Shown here: piece after piece, positions 1-62,023 of the stretch
Numbering within the stretch: position 1 is the first letter of the stretch
How the letters are laid out: every line of letters begins with the position of its first letter
From: Ostreococcus lucimarinus
Taxonomy: Eukaryota
Reading direction: 5' to 3' (one strand)
DNA: 64,000 bases
Assembly (NCBI GenBank): GCA_000092065.1
Contig: CP000583.1
Made by a program: the position numbers and the translations under genes
The notes under the pieces: model-generated
Database searches by the model: none
What the model saw: the letters and a program-made list of their open reading frames with translations, nothing else
What the model was told of the DNA's origin: nothing

Positions 1-170
1 CGATGCGGCGCGTCACTTCGCGCCGCGACGCGATTCGAATCGATTCGATTCGCGTCGCGCGACGCGCGCGACGCGACGCGACGGAGCGGTCGACGCGCGC
101 GACATAGAGACGCGATCGATCGACGGGACGACGCGCGACGCGAGGCGAGGCGTCGACGAATCCGCGAGAC

Positions 171-202
171 GATCGATCGATCGATCGATCGATCGATCGA
201 TC
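171..202. repeat. (GATC)8 palindromic microsatellite ending about 24 bp upstream of the ATG at 226
   Basis: Direct reading: gatcgatcgatcgatcgatcgatcgatcgatc. Confidence 0.85.
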
Positions 203-7635: not shown

Positions 7636-10600
7636 ATGACGCCCGCATCGCGCGATGCGCGCGCGAGCCCGCGCGGTGCGGCGCGCGCGACGCGAGCGCC
7701 GCGAATGCGCGCGCGGCGCGGCGACGTCGCATCGTCCCGAGGACGACGACCGCGCGCGCCGCGCCCGCGCGCGAGCGTCGACGAAGAGCGCTCCGAGCGC
7801 GCGGACAGCGCCGACGGTGCGTCGACGAGCGCGAGGCGGCCGACGATGGAGCTGCAGATGACGCCCGCGAGCGGGGCCCCGTTCGGGGGGTCCAGGGTGG
7901 TGGACTTTGTCGCGGCGTGGGACGCGATATCGCCGCGATTGGCGGCGCGCGAACACGGAGAGGCGGACAAGGAGATGCTGCTGAGCGCGTTGACGCTCGC
8001 CATACCGCGGCTGCAGCAGATCGTGCGAACGGAAGGGAAAGGAAAGAAGCCGGCGCACGAGCGAGCGGTGGACGTGACGCTCACGCTCGTGGACATGGGG
8101 ATGGACGCGGAATGCATCTCCGCGGGATTGCTTCGAGAGGCCGTGGTGCACGGGACGGTGAGTTTGGATGAGATAGAGGACGTGCTCGGGGAGCGGGTGA
8201 TGCGGTTGGCGCACGATGTGGGGCGAGTGCACGATTTACCGAGACGAGTGCACTCGTACGACGAAAACGCGGCGGAACGCTTGCGGTCGTTTTACCTGTC
8301 GTTTCACGACATAAGAGCGATCGTGGTGGAGTTGGCGTGCAGACTTGATACTTTGAGAAACATCGATGAGCTTGAGCCGATCCAGCGGACGACGATTGCG
8401 TTGGAGACGATGCAGATTTACGCCCCCATGGCGCACGCGTTGAACACGGGCGCCCTTTGCGCAGAGTTGGAAGATTTAGCGTTTAAGATTTTGTTTCCGA
8501 CGTCTTACGCCTCGCTGGAGAGGTGGCTGACGGCAAAAAGTCCAGGGGACTCGGCCATCTTGGATAAGATGACAAAGATGCTCACGGATACGATGAACGC
8601 CGACACGACGATGAACGCGTTGATCGGCCGCGGAGGGGTCAAGGTTTTGGCGAGAAGGAAATCTCGTTACTCCACCATGAAGAAGATCATTCGCGATGGG
8701 CGAAAGCGTGAAGAGGTGCACGATTTGCTCGGACTACGCCTCGTTTTGACCCCGCAACCTGGGAGTGGGGCGGAATTGCCCGGCATGGGTCAGGTGTATT
8801 CGGGTGAGGTTACGTACGAGCACATGGAGGCGAGAGCGTTAAAAGCGGCGAACGCGGCGTGCTATCGCGCACAGCAAATAGTGCACGGTTTATTTCCAGC
8901 CGTAAGCGGACGAACCAAGGACTACATCAGTGATCCCAAGGCGAACGGATACTCGTCCTTGCACAGCACTCTCAAGGTCGCGTTTGGCGACGACGGCAAA
9001 CCTTTGGCGTCGAGCGAAGCGTACAAACGCGGCGTGAATGTCGAGATGCAGATCCGAACGGCAGCCATGCATCTCGCCGCTGAAGCGGGCACTGCGTCGC
9101 ACAATTCGTATAAGGGTGGCTTGAAGGAAGACACGGGTATGGCGGGCTCGCTCGCGGACTTGGCCTCGGCAGCGAATCGCGCCGCGGAGGAAAAGTTTGG
9201 CGCTTTCACGCACGCCGATTTGCGCGAACGCGACGAACTCCACGACAGATTGTTCGAAGCATTCGATCTTGATGGTGATGGTCGCGTCACGATGAGTGAG
9301 CTGCGTACGGTACTGGAGAAAATATGGGACACGGAGATGAACGATTTGCGCGAGGAAGCTCACGCGTTGATGGAGCTCCTCGACGTTAACCAGGATGGTA
9401 CTATCGACGCTGATGAATTTGCAAAGTTCCGCGCGTCGCTCACCGCGATTAGTGCGCTACCTAAAGCGGATGCGGCGACCTTGGCGGCGATTGAAGCCGT
9501 TGCGATTGACGTTGAGATCGCCGAAGACGCGCCGGCGGCGCAAGTCGAGGACAAAGCTTTGGTGATTGACGTCAACCCCACGGAGGTGCCCACGGGTGAA
9601 AATATCGAAGAGAAGGCCGAATTGATAGCCACCGTGCGCGCGAAGGTACGAGCCGCGGTATCTGAGAGCTACGAGTACACCGGTAAAGTAGATTTAGCCG
9701 GGCGCAAGGCAACTGCGGCGATGCGCGATTCCGAGTCGGGTCCGGTGGAATGGCAACTGGTGTGGGATTTGATGCGAACTGGTCGAGCCGAGACAGCGCG
9801 TCAACTGTTTTACCAGCGTACTACGCGAGCGCCGAGTCAGATTCTTGTATGGGAGCAGTGGGCACGTTTTGAGCTTCTTCAAGGAGACCCCGAACGCGCG
9901 CGAAGCCTCTACCGCGCTGCATTGTTGCACTGCGAAGATCAGCCCATGGTGCGGGCCGAAATTTTGCGAAAATGGGCCATGATGGAGATAGTATCCACCG
10001 ATGCGCTGCACCAAACGTCTCATTCTGATTTGTTTTCTCGCACGATTGCGGTGCTGGCAGAGGCTCAGAGCAAAGGGCGCATCACTGCCGAGGAGTCTGG
10101 CTCAGCGCAAGCGAAGACGTACCAAGTTTGGGCGCAGGGGCTCGCTCGTGCGGGGAACATCGACGAAGCGAGAAAACTTTTGGATAAGGCTATCGATCTG
10201 GACGAAAACAATGCAGCCGTTGCGCACGCTCAAGGGCAAATCGAGGAAACGCTCGATAACTTCCCGGCAGCCATCGCCGCGTATCGTCGGGGTCTCGAAG
10301 CGAACCCGAACGACGCCTACTTGCTTCAGTCGTGGGGTCGAATCGAGGCGAAGATGGGTCGTTTGGACAACGCTCGAAAGCTGTTTAGACACGGCGTCGA
10401 AACAAACGAGGAAAATTACCACATTCCCCAGGCTTGGGCGGTGAGTGAGGCGGAGCATCCAGAAGGCGACGCGGCGACGGCGCGTGAAATGTTTCAACGC
10501 GCGAGCTCACTCGCGTACTGGTCCGTCCAAACCTGGGCTGCTTGGGCGCGCTTTGAACTGGACGCGGAAGATAACGAGCAAAGGCTTGAAACTGCGCGCA

Positions 10601-11175: not shown

Positions 11176-11844
11176 CGGCGCGCGCACCTTTTCTCGCCCG
11201 CCATCCGTCCTTCGCGCGACCTCGGACCCGCGCCTCGCCTCGCGGCGCGTCGACGAAGAAACGACGAATGGCGTCGCGCGCGGCGTCCACGCGCGCCGAC
11301 GCGCGACCGCCCGCCCGACCCCGGGATCGCCGCGAAATCCTCGCGCGCGCGCGCGCGCGCGTCGCTCGAATCACGACTCGTCGAGTCCCTCTTTTTTTCC
11401 CAGCCCGTCGATACTGTTTGCGCGGCCGACGCCCGGCCGCGACGGCCCCCCGCGACGTCCCGCGGCGGTTTCGGGCGCGCTGGCGTGTGTAAAACGACCG
11501 ATCGTGACTCAAGCGCCGTTTACGTATTGCGCGCGCATTTCGCCAATGTATCGCGAACGCGACGCGCGCGTCGTCTCCGGGCGGTCGGTCGCCCGCCCCG
11601 CGCGACGCGCGCGAGCCGCGACGTCGACGCGCGCGCGGCAGTCGCCCGCGCGCGCGACCGCGCGAGCGCGCGCGAACGCGCGAACCGCGCGCGCGCGACC
11701 GACGGGCGAGGGAATCGACGCGCGCGCGACGATCTCGGCGACGGATCGAAGACGCGATCGATCGATCGAAGATATTTCCGCGGGCAGCGCTGGCGGAAAC
11801 GGCGCGCGCGACGCGCGCGAGGGCGAGGACGCGCGCGAGACGGG

Positions 11845-12684
11845 ATGCCGTCGATGACGCGGAGTCGAACGGACTCGCCGAACGCGATCGCGGCGATCGC
11901 GGTGGACGTCGCGGTGCGAGCGCTGGGAGGGAGGCGGGCGACGGAGGCGGGGACGGCGAGCGACGAGGCGAGCGAGGTGGTCGACGCGTTGTTGCCCAGG
12001 GTGACGCGGTTGAGCGTGCGAAAGCGATTGTCGGGGCGGGGGGGGAAGAGTGATAGAGAGGGACGGGTGGGGGCAGACGAGATGGGGTTCGACGCGATGG
12101 ATGCGGATACGTTGTTCGGGGAAAGATCCACGGAGGGGTCGCTTCGCGGAGGCACGGCGATGTTTCACGAACGAAAAAACTCGTTCGATGGGGAAATTAA
12201 ATTTGAATCGGCGTTGCCGACGGCGTCGGACGATGCGGTGATTCCGACCGAGGAGGGTGGGCGGCGACCGCCGACGCCGGGTAAGACTCGCCCTTGGTTG
12301 AAGGAATCGCGAGCGACTCCGATGCAAGTCGACGACGAGCGAGCGAAGACTTGCGGCGACGCCGTGCCCAGTATTTTGGCTTCGCCGAAGAGAAACGGAT
12401 CCATGCTGATCCTGAATGCGGAAGATCACGATACAAAGATGCGCTGCGTGGGAACGCCGACGTTGGTGCCGCGCGCGCGTCGCGCCGAAGTCAATTCCCC
12501 GACGTTGGTTGGGGTCGAATCGCCGTCGGCGGGTACGCCCTCCGAACAATCCATCGAGACGTCTGACCACAAGCCGTTCAGTCGTAGCGCATCCACGCTG
12601 TCGACGGTATCTCTCGCCTCGGCGTTCAGCCCGGTCTCTCGACCGATGTCGAGGAATGCATCCCAAGAAGACCTCAGTAAATGA
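11845..12684 (+). CDS. Hypothetical Ser/Pro/Thr-rich disordered protein
   Basis: ATG-initiated 279-aa reading frame with host-like GC3 codon usage and no recognisable domain. The upstream part of the track ORF looks non-coding. Confidence 0.3.
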   Translation: MPSMTRSRTDSPNAIAAIAVDVAVRALGGRRATEAGTASDEASEVVDALLPRVTRLSVRKRLSGRGGKSDREGRVGADEMGFDAMDADTLFGERSTEGSLRGGTAMFHERKNSFDGEIKFESALPTASDDAVIPTEEGGRRPPTPGKTRPWLKESRATPMQVDDERAKTCGDAVPSILASPKRNGSMLILNAEDHDTKMRCVGTPTLVPRARRAEVNSPTLVGVESPSAGTPSEQSIETSDHKPFSRSASTLSTVSLASAFSPVSRPMSRNASQEDLSK

Positions 12685-15122: not shown

Positions 15123-16241
15123 TTAACAACGAACGAGAATTTTTAAACGGCCGATCGAGGCCGAGGGGTCGAGGTCGGCGGCGGCGTCGAGGCGAAGGGC
15201 CTCGGGAAGACCGCGCAGGGGGACGTCGCGGAGACGGGACGAGGGCGTGCGGAGCGCGCCGTCGTGAATCTCTCGCGAGATTTGGGCGAGCATGTCGCGG
15301 CGACCGGCGCCTTGAGTGGTGTTTTCGTCGTGCTCGAGCCAGCGGGTGAGCCAGAAGCCTTTGAGGGTGATGTCTTTGAAGATGAAGGCGCCGGTGGGAA
15401 CGACGAGCGGTTGCTTGGACATGCCGCCGTAGGTAACCATGACGGACGATGCGTTCGGCTGAAGCAGTCTAAGCATGGTTTGCGCGCTATATCCACTCAC
15501 GGCGTTAAACCCAAACCGCGCCCTCGTCGCGAGTTCGCGCGTTTTCGCGTCGAGTCGGAGGAATTTACCCTCGACGTCTGGTATCACGACGTCGGCGCCG
15601 TCGGCGCGCAACGATTCAAAAACCTCCTCCGTCGCCGTCTCGCTCGATCTCGGCCGACACATAGCTATCGTTCTAATACCCCTCGCGCGTGCGAGCTGCA
15701 ATAACGCCCGTCCAACCCCCGAAGTCGCGGCGTTCACGACGATCGTATCCCCCTCTCGCGCGTCGTTATCGACCAACAGCCGCAGCGCCGTGCACGGATT
15801 CACCGTCATCATCGCCGCCTCGTGCACGGGCACGTCCCGATCGATCACATCAAACGCGTTCGCGTTCGCCACCACCTCTCGTCGCCACGTTCCCAGCGCG
15901 TACGATCGATTCGGCACCACTCTGTCGCCCGTTCGCGCGCCCCTCGCCAGCGCCCTCGTCCCGCACGCCGTCACCTCCCCCACCATCTCGTTCCCTCCGC
16001 ACGCCGGCAGCTCGCGCGCGACCGGGTACTTACCCTCGATCATGTTCACGTCCGACGGGTTCACCGGCGCGGCGAGGACGCGCACGCGCACGTCGTCCTC
16101 GCCCAGTTCGTCCGGCAACGGTATCGACGCCACGCGCAGGACCTCCCCCGGCGCGCCGCGCTCGGCGTACACGCACGCCTCCGTGTGCGCGCGTCGACGC
16201 GCGATGACGTCGCGGATCGCGCGCGGCGCGCGTCGGCGCAT
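15123..16241 (-). CDS. MDR-superfamily NAD(P)H enoyl reductase, trans-2-enoyl-CoA reductase (MECR/ETR1)-like
   Basis: About 370 aa from MRRRAP (ATG at 16241), with PVNPSDVNMIEGKYP and the GVG Rossmann region typical of MECR/quinone oxidoreductase-like proteins. The 210 aa upstream in the track ORF is Pro/Arg-rich junk. Confidence 0.7.
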   Translation of the reverse strand: MRRRAPRAIRDVIARRRAHTEACVYAERGAPGEVLRVASIPLPDELGEDDVRVRVLAAPVNPSDVNMIEGKYPVARELPACGGNEMVGEVTACGTRALARGARTGDRVVPNRSYALGTWRREVVANANAFDVIDRDVPVHEAAMMTVNPCTALRLLVDNDAREGDTIVVNAATSGVGRALLQLARARGIRTIAMCRPRSSETATEEVFESLRADGADVVIPDVEGKFLRLDAKTRELATRARFGFNAVSGYSAQTMLRLLQPNASSVMVTYGGMSKQPLVVPTGAFIFKDITLKGFWLTRWLEHDENTTQGAGRRDMLAQISREIHDGALRTPSSRLRDVPLRGLPEALRLDAAADLDPSASIGRLKILVRC

Positions 16242-16324
16242 CGCGCGTCGAGCGCGACGCGATGCGGCGTCAGAGCGCGACGCCGCGAATCGATCCGCGC
16301 GCGCGTCGATGCGAGTCGACGCGA

Positions 16325-17524
16325 ATGGACGGTGAGAGCGCCGCGACGACGTGCGGGGCGTGCGAGAAAGCGCGCGCGAGGTACGCGTGTCCGAAGTGCG
16401 GCGCGAGGCTGTGCGCGCTGGCGTGCTACGAGCGACACAACGATGGGAAGTGTCAAAGTCGATTTCACGAGGACGCGCTCGCGAGCGCGATGCGAGGGAT
16501 GACGGCGACGGCGGAGACGAAGCGGGAGATGATGGAGACTTTGCGGCGACGCGCGGTGGCGGACGGGACGCTGGATCTCGGGATCGAGGAGGAGGAGGAG
16601 GAGGAGGAGGGCGACGACGACGACGACGGCGGCGAGCGGTGCGTGCTGAGCGAGGCGAGCTTGGAGGTACTGCGCGCGGGGGGAGAGTTGGATTTAGAAG
16701 CGTTGAATGAGGAAGAACGGGCGAGTTTTGAGCGGGCGGTCGCGAGCGGGGAGCTCGTGGAGGCGTGGGTGCCGTGGTGGGAATCGCCCGAGGCTGGACG
16801 AACGCGCGCGAGCGCGAGGGGCGAGCGCGCGGTGGCGGAGCTCGATCTGTGTGAACCGACGACGAGCGAGGGCGCGAACGACAAAGATAAAGGCATACCA
16901 CCGCTCGCGAGCGCGGATGAAGCTTTGGATCCGTTTGAGAGGTTGAGCGGGGGTAAAGAAGCCCCCGAAGCGCTTCGCTGGCACTGCGTCAACGCGCTCT
17001 CGGCGTACGTCCTCGTCAAGCGATCTTTCAACGGAGATTGGAGCGATGAAGAGGAAATCGCGTGCGACGCGATGTTAGAACTATCCGCTGTGCTCAGCGC
17101 CGAGCGCGGTGCGATCGCGGAGGCCCAGTGCGCGCGAGACGCCGCGCTCGACGTCGTCCGCCGCGCGCCGCGCGCGCTCCCCTCCCCCCCCTCCCCTCGC
17201 GCTCTCCAGCGCGCGCTCACCGCCGACCTCCGCGCCCTGTTCGCCGCCCCAACCATCCCCATTCGAGCCCTGCTCGACCTCTCTCGCGCTCTCGACGTCG
17301 CCGCGCGCGCGTCGGCGTCCGACCGCGCGCGACGCCGCCGCGCCGCGCTCAAGTCCCGCTACCTCTGCGCCTACCTCTGCGCCGACGCCCTCGGCGTCGT
17401 CACCGCCGACGTCGCGCGCGCCGTGAAAGAAATCATCGACGACGACCTCGACGTCGACCCCGACGTCGACCTCGACGTCGTCCGCGTCCGCGACGGCGTC
17501 GCGTCGCCCCGCGCGCGCGGGTAG
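16325..17524 (+). CDS. zf-HIT zinc-finger protein with a poly-Glu/Asp tract
   Basis: CGACEKARARYACPKCGARLCALACYERHNDGKC is a zf-HIT Cys/His pattern. The first ATG of the domain-bearing frame is at 16325. Confidence 0.6.
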   Translation: MDGESAATTCGACEKARARYACPKCGARLCALACYERHNDGKCQSRFHEDALASAMRGMTATAETKREMMETLRRRAVADGTLDLGIEEEEEEEEGDDDDDGGERCVLSEASLEVLRAGGELDLEALNEEERASFERAVASGELVEAWVPWWESPEAGRTRASARGERAVAELDLCEPTTSEGANDKDKGIPPLASADEALDPFERLSGGKEAPEALRWHCVNALSAYVLVKRSFNGDWSDEEEIACDAMLELSAVLSAERGAIAEAQCARDAALDVVRRAPRALPSPPSPRALQRALTADLRALFAAPTIPIRALLDLSRALDVAARASASDRARRRRAALKSRYLCAYLCADALGVVTADVARAVKEIIDDDLDVDPDVDLDVVRVRDGVASPRARG

Positions 17525-19666: not shown

Positions 19667-20302
19667 CTAACTTTCCGCGCTCGGGTTCGCCGCCGCCTCC
19701 TCGGCTCTCGACTTTGCGAGCGCCGCTCTGCGCGCGTACATCGCCTTCGCCTCTTCACTCCGCGCGGCCAGCGCCACGCGTCGCGCGTGTGCCTCCGGAT
19801 TGAACGCCACCATTCCCTCCGGCGATCGCGCATCCGGCGGCTTACTCAACCCTCGCGCCGGCGCCTCCATGCGCGACATTTTCGATTCATCAAACGCGTG
19901 CTCCGCCCCCGGAAACACCCTCAACTTCCGCATCGTCTCCTTGCTCCGCACGCACCTCGGCAGCATGCGTTCGACCGCTTTTCTCAGCACCCACGTCGGA
20001 TCTCGATCGAACATCTCCCTCGCCGTGCGCGTCACCAATCCCCCGACGTATCCCGTGTGTCGATGATACCGCTTCTTCTTCAGCTTCTCCCCCGTCAGGT
20101 GCACCTCCCCCGCGTTCACCACCACCACGACGTCCCCGCTCCCCGCGCCCGGCGCGTACGTCGGCTTATCCTTACCCTGCAGCGCCACCGCGATCCGCGA
20201 CGCCAATCGACCCAGCACCTCGCCCCTCGCGTCCACCAAGCGGTACCGCAGCCCGCGCAGGTTGGCCACGTTGCGCACGATCGCGCTCGATTTCGACGCC
20301 AT
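19667..20302 (-). CDS. Organellar (bacterial-type) ribosomal protein uL13
   Basis: ATG start; MASKSS...LRGLRYRLVDARGEVLGRLASRIAVALQGKDKPTYAP is a canonical L13 N-terminus. Confidence 0.8.
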   Translation of the reverse strand: MASKSSAIVRNVANLRGLRYRLVDARGEVLGRLASRIAVALQGKDKPTYAPGAGSGDVVVVVNAGEVHLTGEKLKKKRYHRHTGYVGGLVTRTAREMFDRDPTWVLRKAVERMLPRCVRSKETMRKLRVFPGAEHAFDESKMSRMEAPARGLSKPPDARSPEGMVAFNPEAHARRVALAARSEEAKAMYARRAALAKSRAEEAAANPSAES

Positions 20303-20425
20303 CGCGCGCGACCGCGACGCGCCGAGCGCCTCCGCGCGCGCGCCGGGCGCGCCTTCGTCCGCGCGCGCGACCGCGCGCGACCGCGACGACCGCGGACGAC
20401 GAACGACGCGCTCGAGCGTCGATCA

Positions 20426-20494
20426 ATGGCGAAATCGCAGAGGTTTTCGCCGCACACGACGGCGCGAGACATGTCGCGCGCGATCGTCGCGCGC

Positions 20495-21493: not shown

Positions 21494-22916
21494 GCTATGA
21501 TTAATGCAAGCTATTCTATTCGTACGACTCCCGCACTCGCCGCGCCGCTTCGCGAACTGGTCCGCCCCGCGCGAGATCGAATCCGGCACCTCCGCCGCGA
21601 ATCGAGGCGCGAGGCTCGACCGCAGGGCGCGCGCGACCGCGAAACGCGGACGCGACTTCGCCCGCGGCGCGAACGACGGACGACGGCGACAGTTGGCGAC
21701 GCGGGACGATGACGACGAGCGACGACGACGCGACGCGCGAGCCGACGACGACGGCGACGACGGTGAACGACGCTTCTAGGTCGTGAAATAAAAGCGCGCT
21801 GAGTCGAGCGCTGTACGCCACGTTCGGGCGAAGGCACGAGGAGAGACGGAATCGAGCGCGAGGTGACGCCGCCGGCGCAAAGTCGAACGCCGCGAAAAAC
21901 GGGAATCGAACGTCGGTGGCCGATAAAGCGTGCGGTGATGATGTTTCGTAGGCGCGATAACGATCGAGTCGCGTCGGCGCGCGAGTTTTGTAAAGTATAT
22001 TGATCAAAAGATGGAGCCACCGCGCGACGCGAGACGCGTCCAACTTGTCAACTTCACAACTTCAACTCTTCAATCTTCAACTCTTTCAACTAGTGTACAG
22101 AGGAGCGAATCGATCGCGCCAGTGCTCGTTCGTGGTGAGTCGGCATGTGTCAATCGATGGAATCTCAGCGCGTGCGCATACTTCTCACGCGAAGCACGTA
22201 TTGAGCATTGAGCTCGTCCAAGCGTCTCGAGATTTCGCGAGCGTCGGGCAAGCGACACGAGTCGCCGCACCAGAACGCTCGACGAGCGGGTGAACAGAGC
22301 GCCTGATTTTGCCAGTATGATGATTTTCCCTTTCCGTTGTTTGCGATCGAAGACGAATACTCATGCGAACGCGCCACGCTCGAGCTCGACGACGGCGCCG
22401 CGGCCGATCCCGACTCGACGTCGGAGTCGGAGTCGTTGAGCATGTTTATCAAATCCACCAAGTCGCACGGAAACATCTCTTCGTGGCTGGCGAGAAACAC
22501 GCTCGGTGACATGAGCGTCACCGTACACGGGGAGGCCGTCGTCGTGGCTTCCGAAGTCGGGGTCGTGCTAATCCTCTCGTCGTCTCGCGAAAGCACCAAG
22601 AGGTCAGAAGTGGGCGACGTGACGACCGAGTCACGCGCGAGGGTATCGGCGCTCGCAGACGCCATGATGAGTGATCGAGACGATGTCCGTCAGTGTACGC
22701 GAGCACTTTGCGGGTAAGGTACGATTGCGCGCGTTAAAGTGTGACCAGCGCCGTGCGCGTCACACTTTTTCGCACGTGAGCGCCGTTGGGTCGTCAGAGC
22801 GAAGGAGCAGCGGAGCCGCGGTTCATATTGAATTCAGATATGTATTATCATGGTACTATACTGCTACGGTGATTGTTGGCTGTGGACATCGGTATGATAC
22901 AAACGGGCTCGCGTCG

Positions 22917-24128
22917 TCATGAAAATGCGTGGCAGTCGTGCACAAACGTCGCCGTCGAGCTTTGTTGACGTATTTCCGCGATTGAATTTGGATCGGCAAA
23001 GGACGCTGGAAGCAGCGCGATCGATTGTAAGGCCTCATTGATGAGACGCATGTAGTACAAACAACCAAACGTGCTTGATTGTACCCTGCTCATGTCGAAC
23101 TGGTATTCGTCTGCTTGCTGTTTCATCTTTGCGACGACGTCGCCGATGGTGCTGGTCTGGAAGATAACAGCCTTCATTCTCTCTATTGGCACTGGACCCT
23201 GCAAGCCACGGAAGCCACTACGCTCCGCAATCATGGATGATTTGTTTTCCATGGCTGCTAATAGATTTTCTTGCATGGCCGCCATGCCGAGATAGTTCGC
23301 GTACGGATGAGCCGGCGCCGCCAACGCCGACGGACCTCGCGTAACCTTCTTATGCGACACACGTTGGCTGCGCCTCTGATCAGACAGGGCAGCGAGCTGC
23401 TTAGCGATCTCTGCTTCTTCGCCCGCGTCTGTAACGTCGTTGAGAAAGAAGGAGCAATAACGATCCGCCACTTGCACGTGTCGCGGAACCTTGCGGAAGT
23501 ATGTGTCTTCTGGAATTTTCCCGAGGTCGGCGTAGAAATCAATCAGAGGTCGCATTTTCCGCGTCCCACGCGGTCTGCGCAACTCGTCCATCGATTCTCG
23601 TATCATCCGTACCTCGACCAAGGGAGGAAGAGGAACAGGCGATGGGTCTCTCACCGCCTCGGCGACTGGTTCGCTCTTCAAGTCCGCGTTGGCTCCGCCG
23701 ATACGAGGTTGTTTCACGGACACCAACCCACTCAACGCGGCTTCTAAGTCATCCTCGAGCACTTCATCGTCGTCGACTGAAGCCTTCGATCGCTTTCTCT
23801 TCGCCGCAACAGCCACTTTTACTTTCTGCTGCGCGGGTTTCGCGAGGGCGACTTCGAGTTCGCGCGGCTCGACGACGACCTCCTTAATCTTCATATACTT
23901 TTCCATCTCCCTCGACGGCTGGACTCCCGGAGGCAGACGCAGCAATAACTTTTCCTTACCCGACCTAAAGTCGATCTGCCAAGGCTTGGTGATCACCAAC
24001 TGCTGCAACGCCTCGGTCTCCGGCAACAAGATCGTCCCCCACAACAACTCCACGCTCGAATCCACGCTCGGCACCCCGACCACGCGCGCGCAAAACTCCC
24101 CCACGGTCTCCCCATCGTACACCGGCAT
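22917..24128 (-). CDS. Hypothetical conserved-looking protein with a possible ubiquitin-like N-terminus and a basic KRKR region
   Basis: 403-aa ORF from the first ATG (MPVYDGE). Balanced composition, unlike the antisense artefacts. No domain recognised with confidence. Confidence 0.45.
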   Translation of the reverse strand: MPVYDGETVGEFCARVVGVPSVDSSVELLWGTILLPETEALQQLVITKPWQIDFRSGKEKLLLRLPPGVQPSREMEKYMKIKEVVVEPRELEVALAKPAQQKVKVAVAAKRKRSKASVDDDEVLEDDLEAALSGLVSVKQPRIGGANADLKSEPVAEAVRDPSPVPLPPLVEVRMIRESMDELRRPRGTRKMRPLIDFYADLGKIPEDTYFRKVPRHVQVADRYCSFFLNDVTDAGEEAEIAKQLAALSDQRRSQRVSHKKVTRGPSALAAPAHPYANYLGMAAMQENLLAAMENKSSMIAERSGFRGLQGPVPIERMKAVIFQTSTIGDVVAKMKQQADEYQFDMSRVQSSTFGCLYYMRLINEALQSIALLPASFADPNSIAEIRQQSSTATFVHDCHAFS

Positions 24129-24610
24129 CTGCGACGCCTCGTAATCCGGCAACGGCTTCGCGCCCGCGTCGCTCGTCGTCCCTCCCGCGTCGTCGCGTCG
24201 TCCCCGTCGTCCTCTCGTCGACGCCTATCCCTCGCGCGCGCGTCCGTTCCATCGTCAGTCCATCGCTCGCGTTCGACCGTCGCCCCTCCTCGTTCCTTTC
24301 GCGTCGTTCGCATCGCGCGCTCGCGCCGCGCGCCCGCGCGCGTCGCGACGACATCGCGCCAATCCCTCGACGCGTTCGTTTCGCGCGCGCGTCGTTCGCC
24401 CCGCGCGCGTCGTCCGCGCGCGCGCACCTTGGTGTCGATCGCGAGCGTCACGTGTCCGATCGGCGCGCGCGTCGCCGCGCGCCGACGCGCGTCGCGCGCG
24501 TCGACGTCCATCGCGCGACGCGACGCGCGCGACGCGACGCGGCGCGCGGAGATGTGCGCCCCGTCCCCTCGCGGGATGTTGCGGCGATCGCGCGGGCGCG
24601 GCGATCGCGC

Positions 24611-24899
24611 GGGTCGGTCGAGTGGGTCGATCGATCGATCGATCGATCGGTGCGTGGGTCGATCGGGTGATCGGTCGGTCGGTGGGTGATCGGTCGGTGG
24701 GTGGGTCGATCGATCGGTGGGTGGGTCGATCGATCGGTGGGTGGGTCGACTCGATCGATCGATCGGTGGATCGGTGGATCGATCGGTGGGTCGATCGATC
24801 GATCGGTGGATGGGTCGATCGATCGATCGGTGGGCGGGTCGACTCGATCGATCGATCGATCGGGGCGATCGATCGGTCGGTCGGTCGGTCGGTCGGTCG
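24611..24899. repeat. Minisatellite of about 290 bp, imperfect (GGTGGGTCGATCGATC)n, inside the divergent intergenic region between the gene starts at 24128 and 24957
   Basis: Direct reading of about 15 tandem units. Confidence 0.9.
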
Positions 24900-30040: not shown

Positions 30041-30799
30041 ACAAGCAACCGAAGAAAGAATGGAAACTCGCCTACGTTTTAATCGATCAATCAATCATTC
30101 AACAAGTCTTCGCACACGCGCTCGTGCCCGCGCGCGAGGTAGAAAATCACAAGCGTCGACCATATTTTTGCGGTCTAGCTCTCGTATGCGCAATCAGTGT
30201 GGCACATGATACTAAAATACTTTTACCACTGGGGCCGGTCGCCGTTTTCGTCGCGGAAAGTCGAACCGTTTACGCACACGCGCGCGCCGGTATGCGTCTT
30301 AGCCACGTCAACGACCGGAAGTCGACCGGAACGCGCGATGACGACGGAAACGACGACGATCCCTCCAATAAAGGGGGGTCGAAACGCCGCGCGTTGTCGA
30401 TGGAAACCGCCATCAATACGGCAGTCACGGCGACGGCGGCGGCGACGAAAGACGCGCGAGTTAAAGGCGAAGAGGTCTTAACGGAGTCCACACCCCTCGA
30501 GGTGGATCGTGCGATGAGCGAGCGAAGCGGTGCAAAGGAACATCTCGTTCACGCCGTGAAAAATCCAAAGCGGCGTCGGCGCGGTCGCCGCACGCCACCG
30601 TTGAGCGAGCGTCCGAAGACGTTGAGCGGGGCAATTCGTGAGATCCGCGCCACATTGGTCGATCCAACGATAGCAAAGCTCGAATTCTATCGGGAAAAGA
30701 TATCCGGCGCCGCGGGCCAGGAGGAAGGTGGAGACACGACCGAGCCGTGAGCGTCGCCGCGACCGACGGCGACCCCCTCGCCCGGACGCCGGGCGCTCG

Positions 30800-30840
30800 A
30801 GCGCCAAGACACATCAACACACATCAACACACATCAACAC
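30800..30840. repeat. (ACACATCA)n tandem repeat, about 4 units
   Basis: Direct reading: acacatcaacacacatcaacacacatcaacac. Confidence 0.8.
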
Positions 30841-30970
30841 GAGTAAACACGATTAATATCCTGTGTTTTACTATCTTAGCATCGTAGACAACGTCGGTAG
30901 CTGACGTACGTATTAATATAGACGGTAAAACACTACTACTGTACTGTGGGTGAACCACCCCGCCCCAGCG

Positions 30971-31004
30971 GTCGGTCGGTCGGTCGATCGATCGATCGTC
31001 GTCG
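30971..31004. repeat. (GGTC)n/(GATC)n microsatellite about 40 bp upstream of the CCT5 start codon
   Basis: gtcggtcggtcggtcgatcgatcgatcgtcgtcg. Confidence 0.8.
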
Positions 31005-35472: not shown

Positions 35473-36007
35473 CTCCCCTCGCCTTCCCTCGGCTCGGTCC
35501 TTGACAGCACAGCAGCAACGTCCACCCTCGCGCCAGGGCGAAGACGCCCGCTTCGCAGTGATTCCTTTCGCGCGCCGCTTTCGTCCCCGCGTGTCGCGGT
35601 TTCACCGGCGCGAATTCCGCGTCGTCCGCCGCGCTCGCGAACGCGCTCGCCGACGCGCTCTCGCTCAGCGCGCTCGCGGACTCGCTCGCGCTCAGCGCCG
35701 GTCCCGTCGTCCCGTCCCGCGCGCTCGATCGAGCGTCGCGCGCGTCGCGCATCGACGACGCGGCGCCGAGTGCCGCCGAGCGACCGCAATCCGCGACGCG
35801 CGGTCGATCGACGCGTCGAGCGCGACGCGCGATGAGCGGGACGATGCGCGTGGCGAACTGCCCGAGTCAGGTGCGCGCGCGCGCGGCGCGCGAGGGCGAG
35901 ACGAGCGCGAGCGAGCGCGATTCGAGATTGCGAATCGAATCGCGCGTCGAATCGTGAAACGATGAAACGACGAAGACTGACGGAGACGCGACGCGCGCGG
36001 GACGCAG

Positions 36008-38194: not shown

Positions 38195-38366
38195 GCGCGT
38201 CGCGCTCGCGCGCGCCGCGCGTCGCGCGCGTCGTCGCCGCGTCGCGCGCGTCTTAGATCTACTACTTCGTATATATCACAATCAAATCTCGCTCTTCGTC
38301 ACCGCGCGCGTCGCCTCTCGCCTCGCCGCTCGATCACCCATCAATCGCCCCGTCCTCCGCGCTCGC

Positions 38367-38501
38367 TCACTTCTTCGCCGACGACCGCCCGAACAGCCCG
38401 GTGAATCCGTTGACGACGATCCCGTACGTCAATCCCGCGGTCACCGCGCCGACGCGCAGGAACGCGGCGAGCGAGCTCGTCCCCGAGTACGGCCCACCCA
38501 T
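38367..38501 (-). CDS. Possible 44-aa single-pass membrane micro-protein (MGGPYSGTSSLAAFLRVGAVTAGLTYGIVVNGFTGLFGRSSAKK)
   Basis: First ATG in its frame. Gly-rich GxxxG-type hydrophobic helix. Sits in the 3' region after NSF. It could be a chance ORF. Confidence 0.2.
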   Translation of the reverse strand: MGGPYSGTSSLAAFLRVGAVTAGLTYGIVVNGFTGLFGRSSAKK

Positions 38502-38582
38502 CGCGCGCGTCGCAGTGCCGGCACCCAGGCAGGCAGTCGACCGGCGACCAGTGGCCGAATGCTGAACACTTAATACTTTTAA

Positions 38583-38692
38583 TTCTCGTCGAGTTTTCTG
38601 CGCATTTACCGTGATTTAGAGCTATGCGTTCAAAACTCGCGAATGCGTTTTGTCCAGCCTGCGCAACGCCGATTTCTTAAACCCTTTTCATA
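38583..38692. repeat. Left copy of a dispersed repeat pair: segment A (38583..38665, about 83 bp) followed by segment B (38672..38692, atttcttaaacccttttcata)
   Basis: Segment A has 80/83 identity with 39752..39834; segment B is identical to 39715..39735. The order here is A-B, but B-A in the right copy. Confidence 0.85.
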
Positions 38693-38742
38693 AGGAATTT
38701 ACCGTACTGTAATTTACCCCCGGGATCTCGCGGGATGATAGG

Positions 38743-38749
38743 TATAAAT
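38743..38749 (+). promoter_or_regulatory. TATAAAT box about 200 bp upstream of the ATG at 38948
   Basis: ggTATAAATcaattaatata, in the only AT-rich stretch of the window. Confidence 0.3.
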
Positions 38750-38947
38750 CAATTAATATATGTGGTCATACGGCCAAATAGTGAGGCTCCATATGTCCGA
38801 CCGACCATGTCGACACCCGCGACACCCGTGTCAACACCCGCGAGTATGGGTCCATGTTTGATTTGATTCTCGCGCGGGGTTGGCAGGCAATTCACTCACT
38901 CCTCCACGCGTCCGCGTCAGCAATTCACTCCTCGACGCGTCGCGGCG

Positions 38948-39676
38948 ATGAACGCGTACGACTCCATCGAACGCGGCGCTGCCGACGAGTGCGAACCTTT
39001 AACAGGACGACGACCACGGACGTTTACTCTCACGCAACTGCTCGTCGCGTGCGGCGCCGTGTGCGTCTGTGCGATCGGGGCGACGATGTTCGTGAACACT
39101 CACGCTCAACTGGCCGACGCTGGTTATGGTGGCGACTCGATCCAATCCTCTGGTTGTCCAATTCAAGACTGGGTTGATGATTCTTTGTGCGCGGCGAGTC
39201 CGCCCGGCCTATCCGAGTCTAAAAGCCGAGGTCGCGCGCTGCTTGGCTCGCGAAACACATCAAGTGAAACATCAATTGACACATCAAGTGACACATCAAG
39301 TGAAACATCAATTGACAACACATCAAGTGACACATCAAGTGACACATCATCAGACACATCAAGTTCCAATCAAGTGTCCATTCCGTCGTGCGCAAAAATA
39401 CCGCCGCGTCCGAAATCAAGTGATTCGGTAAGCTGCAACGGCCACGGTTGGTGTCATGAAGGCACAACGGCAAGTGGCAACAAGCCACACTGCGATTGCA
39501 ACGCTGGTTATGGTGGATCTCATTGCGAAACGAAGATTCTGAACCTGGAAGACCTCAGTATCAAAGTCGCCGACATCGAGGAGGAGATGGAGAAAATGGC
39601 TGAATCCGCAGTCGAGACCATCAAACTCGAGGAGCAACCGCTGCTGCACGAGCACGGGCACGAGCATGGGGAATGA
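38948..39676 (+). CDS. Secreted/type-II membrane mucin-like protein with (SSDT/SSET)n repeats, one EGF-like Cys domain (CNGHGWCHEG...CDCNAGYGGSHC) and a His/Glu-rich C-terminus. Its codon usage is unlike the rest of the window
   Basis: Signal-anchor LLVACGAVCVCAIGATMF. The repeat region is encoded by a 12-bp tandem DNA repeat. A/T-ending codons (tca agt gac aca, gaa aca tca att) contrast with the GC3-rich neighbouring genes. Confidence 0.65.
   Translation: MNAYDSIERGAADECEPLTGRRPRTFTLTQLLVACGAVCVCAIGATMFVNTHAQLADAGYGGDSIQSSGCPIQDWVDDSLCAASPPGLSESKSRGRALLGSRNTSSETSIDTSSDTSSETSIDNTSSDTSSDTSSDTSSSNQVSIPSCAKIPPRPKSSDSVSCNGHGWCHEGTTASGNKPHCDCNAGYGGSHCETKILNLEDLSIKVADIEEEMEKMAESAVETIKLEEQPLLHEHGHEHGE
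39255..39365 (+). repeat. About 9 copies of a 12-bp coding tandem repeat (acatcaagtgac) encoding the Ser/Thr/Asp-rich mucin-like region
   Basis: Direct reading. Confidence 0.8.
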
Positions 39677-54306: not shown

Positions 54307-55119
54307 TTACGTTTTCTTGTACCATTCCGCGAGCTTTTCCATGGGCACGCCGATGTGATAACCTAATATAATTACTTGATTCATCAGAGTCACTTTACTG
54401 AATCCTCGCTCGTCCCATCGCCTGCCGCTCGTCGTCACGGGGGCGCTAAATAGCGCCGGCGCGCCGCGTCGCCGCAACTTTCGCGCCATGATGTAGTCCT
54501 CCATAAACGGTAGCTCATCGAACCCTCCGACGCTGTCAAACGTTTCTCGTCGCATAACCAAAGCCTGATCACCGTAAGGCATTCTAAACAGTCTACACCG
54601 CGCATTCGTCCCGAATTCGATTGCGCGCCGAGTGCACGTTCGAGCGAACCCTTCGTCCTCTCGCTCGCCGCCCATCTTAAATTCGAACGCCCCCCACTCG
54701 CGCGATCGTCCAGTCACGCGTTTCGCCAACGCGCGCGTTATTAACTCCCCGTACCCAGTCGGTAGCGTGCTATCGGCGTGCAGAAACACCAACACATCGC
54801 TCGCGTCTCGCGTCCCCGTCGCCGCCGCCGCCGCCGCCCCCGCGTTCATCTGTCTCCCTCGTCCTCGCTCGCTCCTCACCACGCTCGCCCCGTGCTTCCG
54901 CGCCACGCGCACGGTGGCATCGGTGCTTCCGCCGTCAACGACGATCACGCGCGCGCTCGCGTTCGCGCGCGCGCTCGCGATGGCTTCGCGCACGCGCGTC
55001 TCTTCGTTTAGCGCTGGGATCACCACGGTGAACGACGCCTTCGACGACGGCGCCCTCGACGACGACGCGCGACGCCCATCGCGCGCGTCGCCGTCGCGTC
55101 CCGCGCGATCGAACCGCAT
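54307..55119 (-). CDS. Small GT-A-fold family-2 glycosyltransferase of bacterial type
   Basis: FTVVIPALNEE ... VVDGGSTD ... GT2 motifs in about 270 aa. Resembles the 'rSAM/selenodomain-associated transferase 2' class by recollection only. First ATG at 55119. Confidence 0.7.
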   Translation of the reverse strand: MRFDRAGRDGDARDGRRASSSRAPSSKASFTVVIPALNEETRVREAIASARANASARVIVVDGGSTDATVRVARKHGASVVRSERGRGRQMNAGAAAAAATGTRDASDVLVFLHADSTLPTGYGELITRALAKRVTGRSREWGAFEFKMGGEREDEGFARTCTRRAIEFGTNARCRLFRMPYGDQALVMRRETFDSVGGFDELPFMEDYIMARKLRRRGAPALFSAPVTTSGRRWDERGFSKVTLMNQVIILGYHIGVPMEKLAEWYKKT

Positions 55120-55202
55120 CGCGCGCCGCGTCGACCGCACCGCGCGCGCGGTCAACGAGTGACGATTTGTATTCGTTTCGACTTCAGAACGACGCGCGAC
55201 GC

Positions 55203-57173
55203 ATGCGACGCGCGGTCGTCAACGTCGCCCTCGGCGCGCTGACGATCGTCGATGTTGTTTCGCGCGCGAGCGCGAGCGCGGTGACGATGCGCGCGCGCGC
55301 GATGCGGGCGTACGTCGCCGATGCGATGACGTGCGGCGTCGAAGGACGGTTGCGCGACGAAGCGTCGTCGAGCGATCGGGACGGCGGTGGCGCGCGCGTC
55401 GTCGCGGCGATCGGTGACGGCGGTGATGGATGCGCTGTCGATGCGCGAGGACTGGCGCTGGGCGAGGCCGCGGGACGGGTTGAAGCGATGGAACGCTCGA
55501 GCGCGGCGGACGCCGAGGCGCTGGCGCGCGCGATGATAAACGCGACGACGACAGAGTTGTGGTTGAGGAACGATTTTCGAGCGGTCGAGGAGCTGCTAAT
55601 CCCGATATTCAGCGTTCGCGACGACGACGATGGCTGGCGATGGATGACGCTGTGGGTCAACGCGAATGGAGACGCGCGAATGGGCGGCGACGATTTCTTT
55701 ACGCCGAAGTCGTTCTCTCTCGAGGCGGATGAGGAGAATCAGACGCACGTCGTCGTAATCGTCGACGATGCCGCGGTGAAAACATATGTAAACGCCGCGT
55801 TAAAGTTACAAATGCCTCGGGGGGATGTATGGAGGCTGTCGCGTCCATATGCGCGAGCGCGCATCGTCCTCGGAGGAAGGGCGACCAACGCCGATATTGC
55901 GTGGTCGGGCACGATATACGCTGTCGCGCTCTACCCGTTTGCGCTCACCGCGAGTGACATCGAAAACATTTATGCAGCCGGTTTACCTCACGCTACGCTC
56001 GAGACGTCGGGCGAAATTATCGATATTGACGTGAATCGAGGCGAGGCTATTTCAGCTACGTTTGACGTCGAGACACAAATTGAATTCGATAGCGATCGCC
56101 TCGACGCGCTGTGTGATGAGAATGAGAGTTCTTGCGATTTGTACGTTGATTCTGAATTGATCATCCTAGAGTGGCCACTTTACGGGACGGTTTACTCGTG
56201 TGGATATCCGCGATCTCAGGGCAATGTACGGCGCCTGCCCGCGGACGAGCTGTGCTACCTTGCGACGAATGCTCCGAGCGGTGTAGACGAACATTCGATG
56301 GTGTACCGCGATGCATTTAGATTTGAAATCGCCGGTATCTCTCAGTCACCACGGTTCAAGATTGCGGTTGACGTCCACAAGGGCGTGCTTGCGTGTGACG
56401 TCAACATCCATATGGACGAAGGAGGCGTCGCTGTCACGACGCTTCAGATCATGAACACTGGACACGAATCCGAAGACACGGGCTTCATAGTGAACACATT
56501 TATGGAGCATGGGGTATTTTTTTTTGAGAATGGAACGACCGTACCGATTTATGAGCGCATCGTAGGACACGCGTGCGGGGCTCAGCCCGCATGCAAATAT
56601 TATTCAGTCGATCAGCAAATGCGTCGATGGTGCTTAAACGTCGTTATCGTGCCGTTGCCGGAGTATTTCAATGCGCAAGATACGTTCTTGGGTCCAGAAT
56701 ATCCACCTTGGGAGATGAAGCCGACGAAGATCTCATATTCGGGCTTTGTCGGCGAACACCTATCAAAGCCGGCAACGTTGAACATCACCGTGAGTGCCGT
56801 ATCGAACGAACCGCGGCTTCGAGTGAACCGCAGTGTTTTTACAGCAAAATACCTCGATCGGGTGAGTATCGGAACTTTTCGAATAGACGCGGGTGATTAC
56901 GACTCAAGAGCGTCGCGCGTCGCTATTCGCTCCGCAAAAGCAAATTTGTTATCAGTCTCCAACCTGAGCGCCGTGGCGCTTTGTGAGAATCCGTTCGTCG
57001 CAGGTGATGGAACCGGCAATGATGAGATTGTCTTTGATGCCGTACCGAGCGTCATCGCCTCCGTGCTGAACAGTTTGGTTTACGTTCACATCAAACGCGG
57101 CGCCACACAAGACGAGGTGCGAATAGAAGTCGGCGCAAAAAAGATCGTCTTGATAGCGCTGCTGGGCGCGTAG
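55203..57173 (+). CDS. Large secreted protein with a probable ConA-like/LamG-like lectin domain
   Basis: Signal-like MRRAVVNVALGALTIVDVVSRASA. DGWRWMTLWVNANGDARMGGDDFF ... AWSGTIYAVALYPFALTASDIENIY is reminiscent of LamG/ConA-like folds. Low certainty on family. Confidence 0.45.
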   Translation: MRRAVVNVALGALTIVDVVSRASASAVTMRARAMRAYVADAMTCGVEGRLRDEASSSDRDGGGARVVAAIGDGGDGCAVDARGLALGEAAGRVEAMERSSAADAEALARAMINATTTELWLRNDFRAVEELLIPIFSVRDDDDGWRWMTLWVNANGDARMGGDDFFTPKSFSLEADEENQTHVVVIVDDAAVKTYVNAALKLQMPRGDVWRLSRPYARARIVLGGRATNADIAWSGTIYAVALYPFALTASDIENIYAAGLPHATLETSGEIIDIDVNRGEAISATFDVETQIEFDSDRLDALCDENESSCDLYVDSELIILEWPLYGTVYSCGYPRSQGNVRRLPADELCYLATNAPSGVDEHSMVYRDAFRFEIAGISQSPRFKIAVDVHKGVLACDVNIHMDEGGVAVTTLQIMNTGHESEDTGFIVNTFMEHGVFFFENGTTVPIYERIVGHACGAQPACKYYSVDQQMRRWCLNVVIVPLPEYFNAQDTFLGPEYPPWEMKPTKISYSGFVGEHLSKPATLNITVSAVSNEPRLRVNRSVFTAKYLDRVSIGTFRIDAGDYDSRASRVAIRSAKANLLSVSNLSAVALCENPFVAGDGTGNDEIVFDAVPSVIASVLNSLVYVHIKRGATQDEVRIEVGAKKIVLIALLGA

Positions 57174-57313
57174 AGCTGTGCAATGCGTACAATGAATTTT
57201 TGCAGCTGATTATCGTCGAATTTACCCGCACTAGCTCGATCAACTGCGCGCCGCGCCTCACTTCTCCGCGGTGACTACCTCGCAGTGGTCACAATCGCAC
57301 TCGTGCGGACGCC

Positions 57314-57685
57314 ATGCCCGGTAAACCGCCGCGAAACGAGCGCTCGCTGGTGTGTTTCATCCAAGCTCTAGTCGGGACCACGGTCGTGATCGAATGCCGC
57401 GATGACGTCGCGCTCAGGGGTCACCTCGAGCAGTGCGATGAGGGCATGCACTGCACGCTCACGAATGCAATCCGCGTCACGCCCGAGGGGCACAAGACTA
57501 AGCTCGAGCGCGTGTTCGTGCGCGCGCGCATGATACGTTACGTACACTTCGCGCCGACGATCGATCCGTTAGAGCTGATCGAACAGAAGAGGCTCGAGTG
57601 GTTCAATGCGTCGAGGCACTACGCGGGCAAGGCGGCGTTTGGTCCCAAGAACGCGCCCAAGGTACGGGATGCGGAGGCTAGGTAG
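57314..57685 (+). CDS. Sm-like protein, closest in motif to LSm10 (U7 snRNP)
   Basis: SLVCFIQALVGTTVVIECRDDVALRGHLEQCDEGMHCTL ... VFVRARMIRYVHFAP (compare LSm10 LFVTGRNVRYVHIPD). Confidence 0.55.
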   Translation: MPGKPPRNERSLVCFIQALVGTTVVIECRDDVALRGHLEQCDEGMHCTLTNAIRVTPEGHKTKLERVFVRARMIRYVHFAPTIDPLELIEQKRLEWFNASRHYAGKAAFGPKNAPKVRDAEAR

Positions 57686-57754
57686 AAAAGCGTACAGTAG
57701 ATAAATAGAATGAATAGCATGCTTTGTGTAATATTACAGTGTATCATCAAATCA

Positions 57755-59926: not shown

Positions 59927-60028
59927 CGCGACGCGCGCGATGATGCCGACACATCGCGACGCGCGTCGCGACCGAGCGAAGAACCGACGCAGATGCGCGC
60001 GAACTCGCGCGCGCGCGCGACGGCGACG

Positions 60029-60682: not shown

Positions 60683-61738
60683 TTCGCGCGCTTCGGGACG
60701 GCGCAAGCGGGCTCTTAGATGTACAGTTTGCGTTTCGTTCTACAATTCTCTAGAAAGCTATAGTAATATACTCTGTTAACGATCGGTATCGCCAACCTGC
60801 TCGGATGACGTGTTGTAAAAGAGAAAACCATCACGCGGTGCAAATTCGAAATTTTTCGAAAATGTCGCCAGCCCCACCGCGCGTAGCTCTCAGAGTCAAC
60901 GGTAACTCTCAATGTGAGTAAAACCAGTAAAATTATGTCAGTGCGTAGCGTGTCCTTTACGCTGTCCGGCCAGCAACCTCGCCGCCTCGACGGCCTCCTT
61001 CGCCAGTCTCTGGTGTTTGCGACGCGCGATTTTCGCATCCGCCGCGGCGCGCTTCTGTGCCGGCGTCAGCGCGTCTCGTCGCCTCTGCGACCGCAGCCGT
61101 TCCTTCTCTCGATGCTCGGGGGTCTGAACCAACCGACGCCGTATGCTTCGCATTCTCTTGCGATCGGATTCCGTCGCGTCGGCCGCGTCGGCCTCGTACT
61201 CCGGCACGATGACTATCGCCACCTTGGTCTCGCCCGCCCCCCCCCCCGTCGCCTCCCTCTCGCCGCTCGCGCCCGTCTCCTCGCCCTCTTCTTCCCCACG
61301 ACCGACCTCGTTCTTTTTTTCTTCCCGCGCGTCGCGGTCGTCCGCGTCCGCGCCGTCGCGCGCCGCTCGCGCGTCCTCCTCCTCGCCGTCGATGAATCGC
61401 AATCGCGGCAGCGCCGCGTCCCGCGCGCGCGCGCGTCTTCCGCCCCTACCCGTCGCCGCCGTCGTCGTCGCCGCCATCGGACGCGCGATCGGGCGACGCG
61501 ATCGACGATCGTCGTCCATCGCGCGCCTCGATCGCGCCGATCGCGCGCGTTCGCGCCGCGCGTCCGACACTCGCGCGACCGCGCGACCGCGCGATCGCGC
61601 GGACGCGCCAGCGGACGCGCCTCGCGGATACGCAGTTACGCTTTGCGCAGTGACGCGGATATCGCGCGCGTCGCGATCGACGTCGATCGATCATCGCGAT
61701 CGACGACGATCGACGCGTCGAGGTTCGATCGATCGTTC

Positions 61739-61853
61739 GGGTCCGCTTTAAGTAGTTTGGGTCCGCTTTAGTGGTATTTGGATCCGTCATGCTATCTTGG
61801 GTCCGCCCTCAGTGGTCGTCCGGCGTCGCGGGTCCGCCCTCGGTGGTATTTTT
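61739..61853. repeat. Five tandem units of about 20-22 bp (GGGTCCGC[C/T]YT-N-AGTGGT...) flanked on both sides by GATC-rich palindromic blocks (61660..61738 and 61858..61960). This composite element ends about 60 bp upstream of the PRPF19 ATG
   Basis: Direct reading: gggtccgctttaagtagttt / gggtccgctttagtggtattt / ggatccgtcatgctatctt / gggtccgccctcagtggtcg... / gggtccgccctcggtggtattttt. The right flank contains (GATC)10. Confidence 0.85.
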
Positions 61854-62023
61854 CGGCGATCGATCGCGACGTCGATCGATCGATCGATCGATCGATCGAT
61901 CGACGCATCGACGCATCGAGGCGTCGATCGCGACGCGCGATCGATCGATCGCGTCGCGCGTCCGTCCGCGCGCGCGTCCGTCCGCGCGCGCCGCCGGCGC
62001 GCGGGAGTGCGCGACGCCGGGGC

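Follow-up and report, generated by a model that had tools for sequence, protein, structure and literature searches.

Short tandem units lying just upstream of genes are a described feature of eukaryotic promoters, in yeast and among human promoter microsatellites (PMC3566118; review PMC5622345), where copy number is polymorphic between individuals and turnover between species is fast. The (GATC)n arrays of the alga Ostreococcus reported here share these properties and, as candidates, may share a quantitative effect on expression. They are hypervariable promoter-located microsatellites, a kind already known, with an unusual unit: GATC is a CpG-containing palindrome, whereas repeats elsewhere usually have AT-rich or GT/GA units. 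They also differ in their setting, a compact genome in which non-triplet repeats fit almost only in promoter spacers.

A second system for comparison is the AMT1-type 6mA of Chlamydomonas, Micromonas and Ostreococcus. Published nanopore work places this mark at ApT in Micromonas and Ostreococcus, with a peak at the ATG or just past the transcription start site (TSS), the region of lowest 5mCG (PMC12695648; bioRxiv 10.64898/2026.07.10.737489). GATC offers ApT in the favored VATB setting, and the arrays occupy the 6mA-high, 5mCG-low zone around start codons, but the published 6mA is carried by dispersed ApT sites in active genes, where they lie in linkers of the first nucleosomes, and is not tied to GATC repeats (PMC12695648; bioRxiv 10.64898/2026.07.10.737489). 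Clustered GATC beside a regulated start region is also known from bacteria, where it is read through Dam methylation (oriC/SeqA, pap phase variation), and the GATC restriction-modification pair CviAI of chloroviruses is a further point of comparison; the bacterial sites are spaced, conserved and read by specific proteins, unlike the variable head-to-tail slippage arrays of Ostreococcus, and the likeness is one of analogy only. Palindromic repeats such as (AT)n share perfect self-complementarity and a predicted stable fold-back but lack the 50% GC and the one CpG of the GATC unit. Our literature search found nothing specific on GATC repeats or microsatellites in promoters of Micromonas, Ostreococcus or Mamiellales, where GATC was mentioned only as Hi-C ligation sites and viral methylation motifs.

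The window analyzed here, a 64-kb stretch of Ostreococcus lucimarinus DNA, has 61% GC, a CpG observed/expected ratio of 1.65 and about 39 genes. GATC is its dominant tetranucleotide repeat: GATCGATCGATC, that is (GATC)3, was matched 22 times against 0.03 expected from dinucleotide-preserving shuffles of the window, and ten perfect GATC-class period-4 runs of at least 12 bp, reaching 8.25 head-to-tail units, fell into five loci (Table 1). GGTC was the sole other recurrent tetranucleotide class in the window and was found only beside GATC runs. All five loci precede a start codon, at a distance of 23-121 bp; five of the roughly 39 genes carry an array. Pairs of GATC also occur inside coding DNA of the window (15839, 18142 and 26985).

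Table 1 Coordinates of GATC-class arrays, seeds and related features in the 64-kb window.
Feature	Position	Strand	Setting and composition
Locus 1, perfect (GATC)8.25 microsatellite	170..202 (33 bp)		Divergent spacer; ends 23 nt before ATG 226
Isolated GATCGATC seed	114..121		In the locus 1 spacer
Locus 2, (GATC)3.75	11755..11769		670-bp tandem spacer (stop 11175), 76 bp upstream of ATG 11845
Locus 3, 290-bp imperfect compound array	24611..24899		GATC, GGTC and GGTG units; ends 58 bp before ATG 24957
Locus 4, compound (GGTC)4(GATC)3	30969..30998	+	Tandem 295-bp spacer, 47 bp upstream of CCT5 ATG 31045; (GGTC)4 first, GATC part at 30984-30998
Locus 5, GATC-rich block	61857..61951		(GATC)7 at 61872-61903 and (GATC)3 at 61938-61951, 121 and 73 bp from PRPF19 ATG 62024 (+)
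Degenerate GATC/CGAT block	61674..61739		64% matches; far side of the PRPF19 divergent spacer
GATCGATC seed	57559..57566		Convergent (3'-3') spacer; placement counter-example, unexpanded
Sequence without GATC repeat	35925..35960		gattgcgaatcgaatcgcgcgtcgaatcg, gaatcgaatcg-type

An earlier note on this DNA had reported arrays upstream of at least four genes, and all four were recovered, with small changes of boundary for three of them: the run placed at 171..202 is a perfect (GATC)8 at locus 1, that before CCT5 is the compound locus 4, the minisatellite before the gene at 24957 is an imperfect array, and the run placed at 61873..61912 is the (GATC)7 of locus 5. A short run listed near 11755 proved to be a fifth promoter array, its position before the gene at 11845 having gone unmentioned. 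Two further short runs did not hold up, one (35925..35960) containing no GATC and the other (24600..24660) being part of the locus 3 array. The distance of 15-60 bp to the start codon claimed for the named genes applies to three of the four, the PRPF19 array lying 73-121 bp away.

The gene at ATG 226 encodes a 579-aa secreted or coiled-coil-like protein, and the divergent nature of its spacer was established on a conspecific contig (L001), in which the ATG of a minus-strand gene lies 264 bp upstream of that of gene 1. The array of locus 3 has a higher-order period of roughly 20 bp, contains five perfect GATC-class runs, and occupies a divergent spacer of 829 bp between a gene at 22917-24128 (-) and the AhpC/PAP-fibrillin gene starting at 24957 (+). 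Exon 2 of the CCT5 gene behind locus 4 was identical over 460 residues (100% identity) to XP_001416598 of Ostreococcus lucimarinus CCE9901, which assigns the window to this species or to its immediate population. Locus 5 lies in a divergent spacer of roughly 550 bp between a gene at 60938-61477 (-) and PRPF19.

Gene models combined Pfam hits with a log-odds score for codon usage, for which the confident genes served as training set. For a wider view we scanned metagenome contigs for (GATC)6, which gave at least 120 loci, a sample chosen for carrying the repeat and annotated by a crude codon-usage predictor with no TSS information. Among the matches listed, 42 contigs with a GC of 0.53-0.68 and a CpG observed/expected ratio of at least 1.4 were taken as Mamiellales-like and treated with the same gene predictor as the window. 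For nine of ten sampled flanking genes on these 42 listed contigs the predicted strand carried Pfam domains, in support of the orientations assigned and of the reliability of the gene predictions. Another 78 of the matches listed were AT-richer contigs of other organisms (GC 0.35-0.52, ordinary or low CpG) and were set aside from the placement analysis; they indicate that long GATC microsatellites occur also in unrelated organisms, several of them from host-associated samples, and (GATC)n is not unique to the Mamiellales lineage. For the placement counts two duplicate loci were dropped and the five loci of the window were included; spacer lengths and GC were taken from the same 441 kb of Mamiellales-like DNA.

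Across the window and the 42 related loci (L016-L133), the GC content of spacers tracked gene orientation, with 65% in divergent, 61% in tandem and 49% in convergent spacers, and the most GC-rich non-coding DNA was that of promoter spacers. The GATC word itself was not enriched beyond base composition: in repeat-free sequence its observed/expected ratio, calculated from dinucleotides, was 0.61 in divergent, 0.74 in tandem and 0.54 in convergent spacers and 0.68 in coding DNA. An apparent over-representation of GATC or CGATCG as a promoter word was rejected, since it disappeared once repeat-bearing spacers were removed and is explained by the decayed flanks of repeats. The potential seeds of arrays, CGATCG and GATCGATC, reached 2-3 times the density in promoter spacers that they had in 3'-3' spacers, in keeping with the GC- and CpG-rich composition of the former.

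The arrays favored promoter spacers. Counting arrays flanked by a known gene on either side, in the window and among the matches listed, divergent spacers (20.8 kb) held 14 GATC arrays and 23 other non-triplet simple sequence repeats (SSRs), tandem spacers (27.1 kb) held 12 and 27, and convergent spacers (13.1 kb, median 121 bp) held 1 and 6, respectively; array density, within the same matches, was 0.63 per kb in divergent versus 0.48 per kb in tandem spacers. The shortage in convergent spacers among these matches was nominally significant against spacer length alone (P=0.012), and not significant when the control was the distribution of other non-triplet SSRs on these sequences (P=0.20) or the product of seed density and length (P=0.21). 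SSRs without ApT (GGTC, AGCG and AACG) were placed like the GATC arrays. The preference for promoter spacers, present in the window as well as in the wider sample, supports part of the earlier note's reading, and other non-triplet SSRs share it. Runs of at least 20 bp were, among the matches listed, almost only outside coding DNA; six runs fell inside predicted genes, four of them no longer than 15 bp and two, of 25 and 29 bp, in weak-scoring ORFs that were probably predicted in error. The promoter-side bias is largely a consequence of arrays being excluded from coding DNA and from 3'-3' spacers, which are AT-rich and very short. Arrays at contig ends add a further component: 20 of 21 among the matches listed faced a gene start, an excess that stayed significant both against the expectation from other SSRs (P=0.0015) and against the two-sided GATC sample (P=0.015), leaving a modest residual preference for bidirectional promoter spacers that the controls do not explain.

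Within promoter spacers no narrow, fixed distance to the start codon emerged. The 23-121 bp of the window widened to 4-1015 bp between run and predicted ATG on the 42 Mamiellales-like contigs among the matches listed; most arrays of the wider sample in those matches lay 100-600 bp from an ATG, and the two-sided cases were mostly in divergent spacers. In the tandem spacers of the matches listed, the mean relative position of arrays on a scale from stop to ATG was 0.59 (n=12, z=1.1), with no significant bias toward the ATG end.

No flanking sequence was common to the 50 runs of at least 20 bp examined among the matches listed, and a shared mobile element or module around the arrays was rejected because the flanks are unrelated. 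Many arrays were bordered by one-base variants of the unit (GACC/GGTC, GTTC, GATG and GATA). Unrelated flanks and variant units together point to independent origins of a kind typical of microsatellite birth and decay, in non-triplet units kept out of coding DNA. An RNA gene was also considered as a candidate and dropped, the window containing no Rfam or tRNA match.

Copy number varied within the species at three loci. On two conspecific contigs with at least 99.3% identity to the window, locus 1 measured 37 bp (L001) and 25 bp (L002), compared with 33 bp in the window, corresponding to 9, 6 and 8 units. For loci 3 and 4 the window and ten further haplotypes were compared. Between fixed anchors, locus 3 ranged from 372 to 415 bp in seven length classes over the 11 conspecific haplotypes, changing through substitutions of units and as blocks of roughly 20 bp were gained or lost. 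Locus 4 was invariant in all 11, as expected for a short microsatellite of only 3-4 units. At locus 5, whose spacer is spanned by four conspecific haplotypes (L145-L148), the main run had 7 units, 7 with an extra unit, 4, or 3 with a local duplication, or was deleted, the deletion having removed the main run together with a neighboring repeat copy in one haplotype. Short-read contigs carrying PRPF19 stop at the locus 5 array.

Two of these promoters showed additional features. The segment directly upstream of the CCT5 repeat (30925-30955, 30 bp; about 9290-9330 in L135-L144) is an indel hotspot whose sequence differs in nearly every one of the 11 haplotypes, while the stretch from the repeat through the ATG is identical. 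A putative TATA box upstream of the same repeat was discarded: the window reads 'gtattaatatagacgg' where the ten other haplotypes read 'gtattgtttgtagacgg', and the TATA-like sequence is therefore unusable as evidence that the CCT5 repeat lies in a 5' UTR. The PRPF19 spacer holds, at 61739-61860 between its two GATC-rich blocks, GGGTCCGC(Y)3 in four exact copies and GGATCCGTCAT as a degenerate fifth, at intervals of 20-31 bp. The exact element is confined to this part of the window, haplotype L148 lacks one copy, and the series has no Rfam match.

Turnover between species was rapid. An O. tauri-like syntenic contig (L003), with coding DNA 70-79% identical to that of the window, contained no GATC run of at least 12 bp in 21 kb, and no tetranucleotide array in the spacer orthologous to the AhpC promoter (2290-2900). 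At the place equivalent to locus 4 it carries (GGAT)n instead (9373-9401, CCT5 ATG at 9445). A syntenic Micromonas-like orthologue of gene 1 (BLASTP E=4e-15) likewise had no GATC in its divergent promoter. In total, (GATC)n was absent from three orthologous promoters of O. tauri-like and Micromonas-like relatives. On the same O. tauri-like contig, about 500 bp of extra, AT-richer sequence (8780-9340) lies between CCT5 and its upstream gene and is absent in O. lucimarinus.

We consider it likely that the arrays are ordinary tetranucleotide microsatellites generated by slippage, one of them grown into a compound minisatellite, that are typical of Ostreococcus and other Mamiellales, and that any regulatory effect is a by-product. 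Observed directly here are the base composition, the density of seeds, the location of arrays, their polymorphism and turnover, and their independent origins; we infer that slippage generated the arrays, that fold-back contributed, and that selection acts against them in 3' regions that are transcribed. The CpG-rich composition of promoters would supply seeds and replication slippage would expand them, probably helped by fold-back of either repeat strand. Arrays would persist only where a 4-bp unit is harmless: such a unit could not grow in coding DNA without a frameshift, and convergent spacers, tiny (median as above) and wholly 3' UTR under this scheme, would offer arrays little room. What non-coding DNA remains would lie nearly all within 100-300 bp of a start codon, so that surviving arrays would end up 'just upstream of an ATG'. 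By-product effects are possible, through extra ApT and CpG methylation sites, hairpins or altered promoter spacing, and these might tune expression while not being required for it.

Positions 160-235 were predicted to fold into a hairpin, at -21.6 kcal/mol for DNA and -37.5 kcal/mol for RNA, with z-scores against shuffles of -1.7 and -2.8, respectively. The hairpin capacity attributed to the arrays by the earlier note is thus borne out for self-complementarity, and at 170-202 by a fold-back predicted to be stable. At 163-209 the palindrome continues for 7 bp past either end of the repeat (CGCGAGA / TCTTGCG, one G-T pair included), which lengthens the predicted stem. Such fold-back probably raises slippage and instability of GATC arrays and breaks short-read assemblies.

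The principal alternative is that the arrays are tunable promoter elements, a dense patch of ApT (VATB) and CpG in the 5mC-poor, 6mA-rich zone; we think this unlikely. AMT1 methylation or nucleosome exclusion would help to keep the promoter open and copy number would act as an evolvable dial of expression, an extension about which we are equally doubtful. The earlier note's appeal to 6mA has a published basis, the peak of AMT1-type 6mA at ApT just after the TSS or at the ATG being complementary to 5mCG (PMC12695648; bioRxiv 10.64898/2026.07.10.737489). Each GATC is a symmetric ApT in the favored context (G-AT-C), in a 6mA-rich zone defined here from the literature only, and window promoters with an array had 7-14 ApT per 150 bp upstream of the ATG compared with a median of 5. 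The arrays may well be methylated, then, and could modulate promoter chromatin. The favored promoter spacers and the one-sided cases facing a gene start, both among the matches listed, also speak for such a role, as does the CCT5 repeat of the O. tauri-like genome, in the same place with a different unit. The ordinary-microsatellite reading is weakened by the residual promoter-side excess, by the ApT-rich array promoters, and by the CCT5 repeat, which two species have at one place and which in O. lucimarinus is invariant beside a hypervariable stretch. Against the tunable role, 34 of the 39 window promoters have no array, natural PRPF19 haplotypes lack the main run and orthologous promoters lack arrays; SSRs without ApT are placed likewise, GATC words are no commoner than composition predicts, and the published 6mA is found chiefly in linkers past the TSS and not necessarily upstream of the ATG. 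Overall, a functional, tunable role in promoters seems to us improbable. The more specific proposal that (GATC)n arrays are the densest natural AMT1 substrates in Ostreococcus promoters, forming copy-number-tunable 6mA and nucleosome-free patches in which slippage would create heritable, fast-evolving variation of expression in a genome nearly devoid of other regulatory DNA, is distinctly less probable again.

A required positioned signal is very unlikely. The earlier note had proposed a dedicated promoter-proximal signal or TSS selector, and against this stand the unfixed distance, the variable copy number, the orthologous promoters without arrays, the small share of genes carrying one, the unenriched GATC word and the like placement of other SSRs. 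Its observation of arrays before start codons is largely right; its reading of them as positioned promoter signals is for the most part unsupported.

The arrays might also act after transcription, as (GAUC)n hairpins in the 5' UTR controlling translation or stability of the downstream mRNA, a reading that we regard as highly improbable. In its favor are the strength of the RNA fold predicted for 170-202 with its flanks, ending 23 nt before the AUG, and the three arrays lying 23-58 bp from an ATG. A 5' UTR hairpin this strong, however, would be expected to block scanning during eukaryotic translation initiation, and free variation in length is hard to square with tuned translational control. 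Most arrays of the wider sample among the matches listed, moreover, lie farther from the ATG, at the 100-600 bp given above, with two-sided cases mostly divergent; selection against arrays in transcripts, if present, would favor the neutral model. Finally, that the arrays are no genuine nuclear feature at all is hardly credible: GATCGATC is the Hi-C ligation junction of DpnII-type enzymes and transposon ends are often marked by repeats, but against an assembly or library artefact (such as DpnII ligation junctions) stand arrays at matching loci in many independent shotgun and long-read assemblies and runs of 8-12 units rather than 2, against a mobile-element remnant the lack of common flanking sequence among the runs examined, and against an unannotated RNA gene the absence of Rfam or tRNA matches in the window.

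If the arrays are ordinary slippage microsatellites, the pattern is a side product of the non-coding space that this compact algal genome leaves, and the finding by itself matters little. The arrays are of use as highly polymorphic markers for Ostreococcus population genetics, and they account for the breaks at promoters in short-read metagenome contigs of these algae. Length alleles precede essential genes, PRPF19 and CCT5 among them, and so offer a natural experiment on ApT and CpG density versus promoter chromatin. MNase-seq data have been published for prasinophytes, namely those on Micromonas pusilla used in PMC12695648. The Huff and Zilberman data set reportedly includes O. lucimarinus, and gene targeting by homologous recombination is reported to work in O. 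tauri. Were it true that arrays nucleate 6mA, microsatellite instability would be tied to epigenetic promoter tuning in a minimal eukaryote.

Some spacers of the window deserve mention in their own right. Bidirectional spacers can be very short, with 67-124 bp between divergent start codons (59926-59993, 16241-16325, 55119-55203 and 20302-20426), one of them separating an ABCF gene from a SOUL gene. Coding signal is weak or absent in three stretches of 0.6-1.4 kb (21500-22900, 38200-38950 and 57173-57755), unusually for so dense a genome; they gave no Rfam or tRNA matches and may hold unrecognised small genes or ncRNAs. Downstream of the gene at 30292-30750, an AT-rich stretch at 30800-30840 contains a (CACATCAA)n-like repeat that is probably 3' UTR or terminator sequence.
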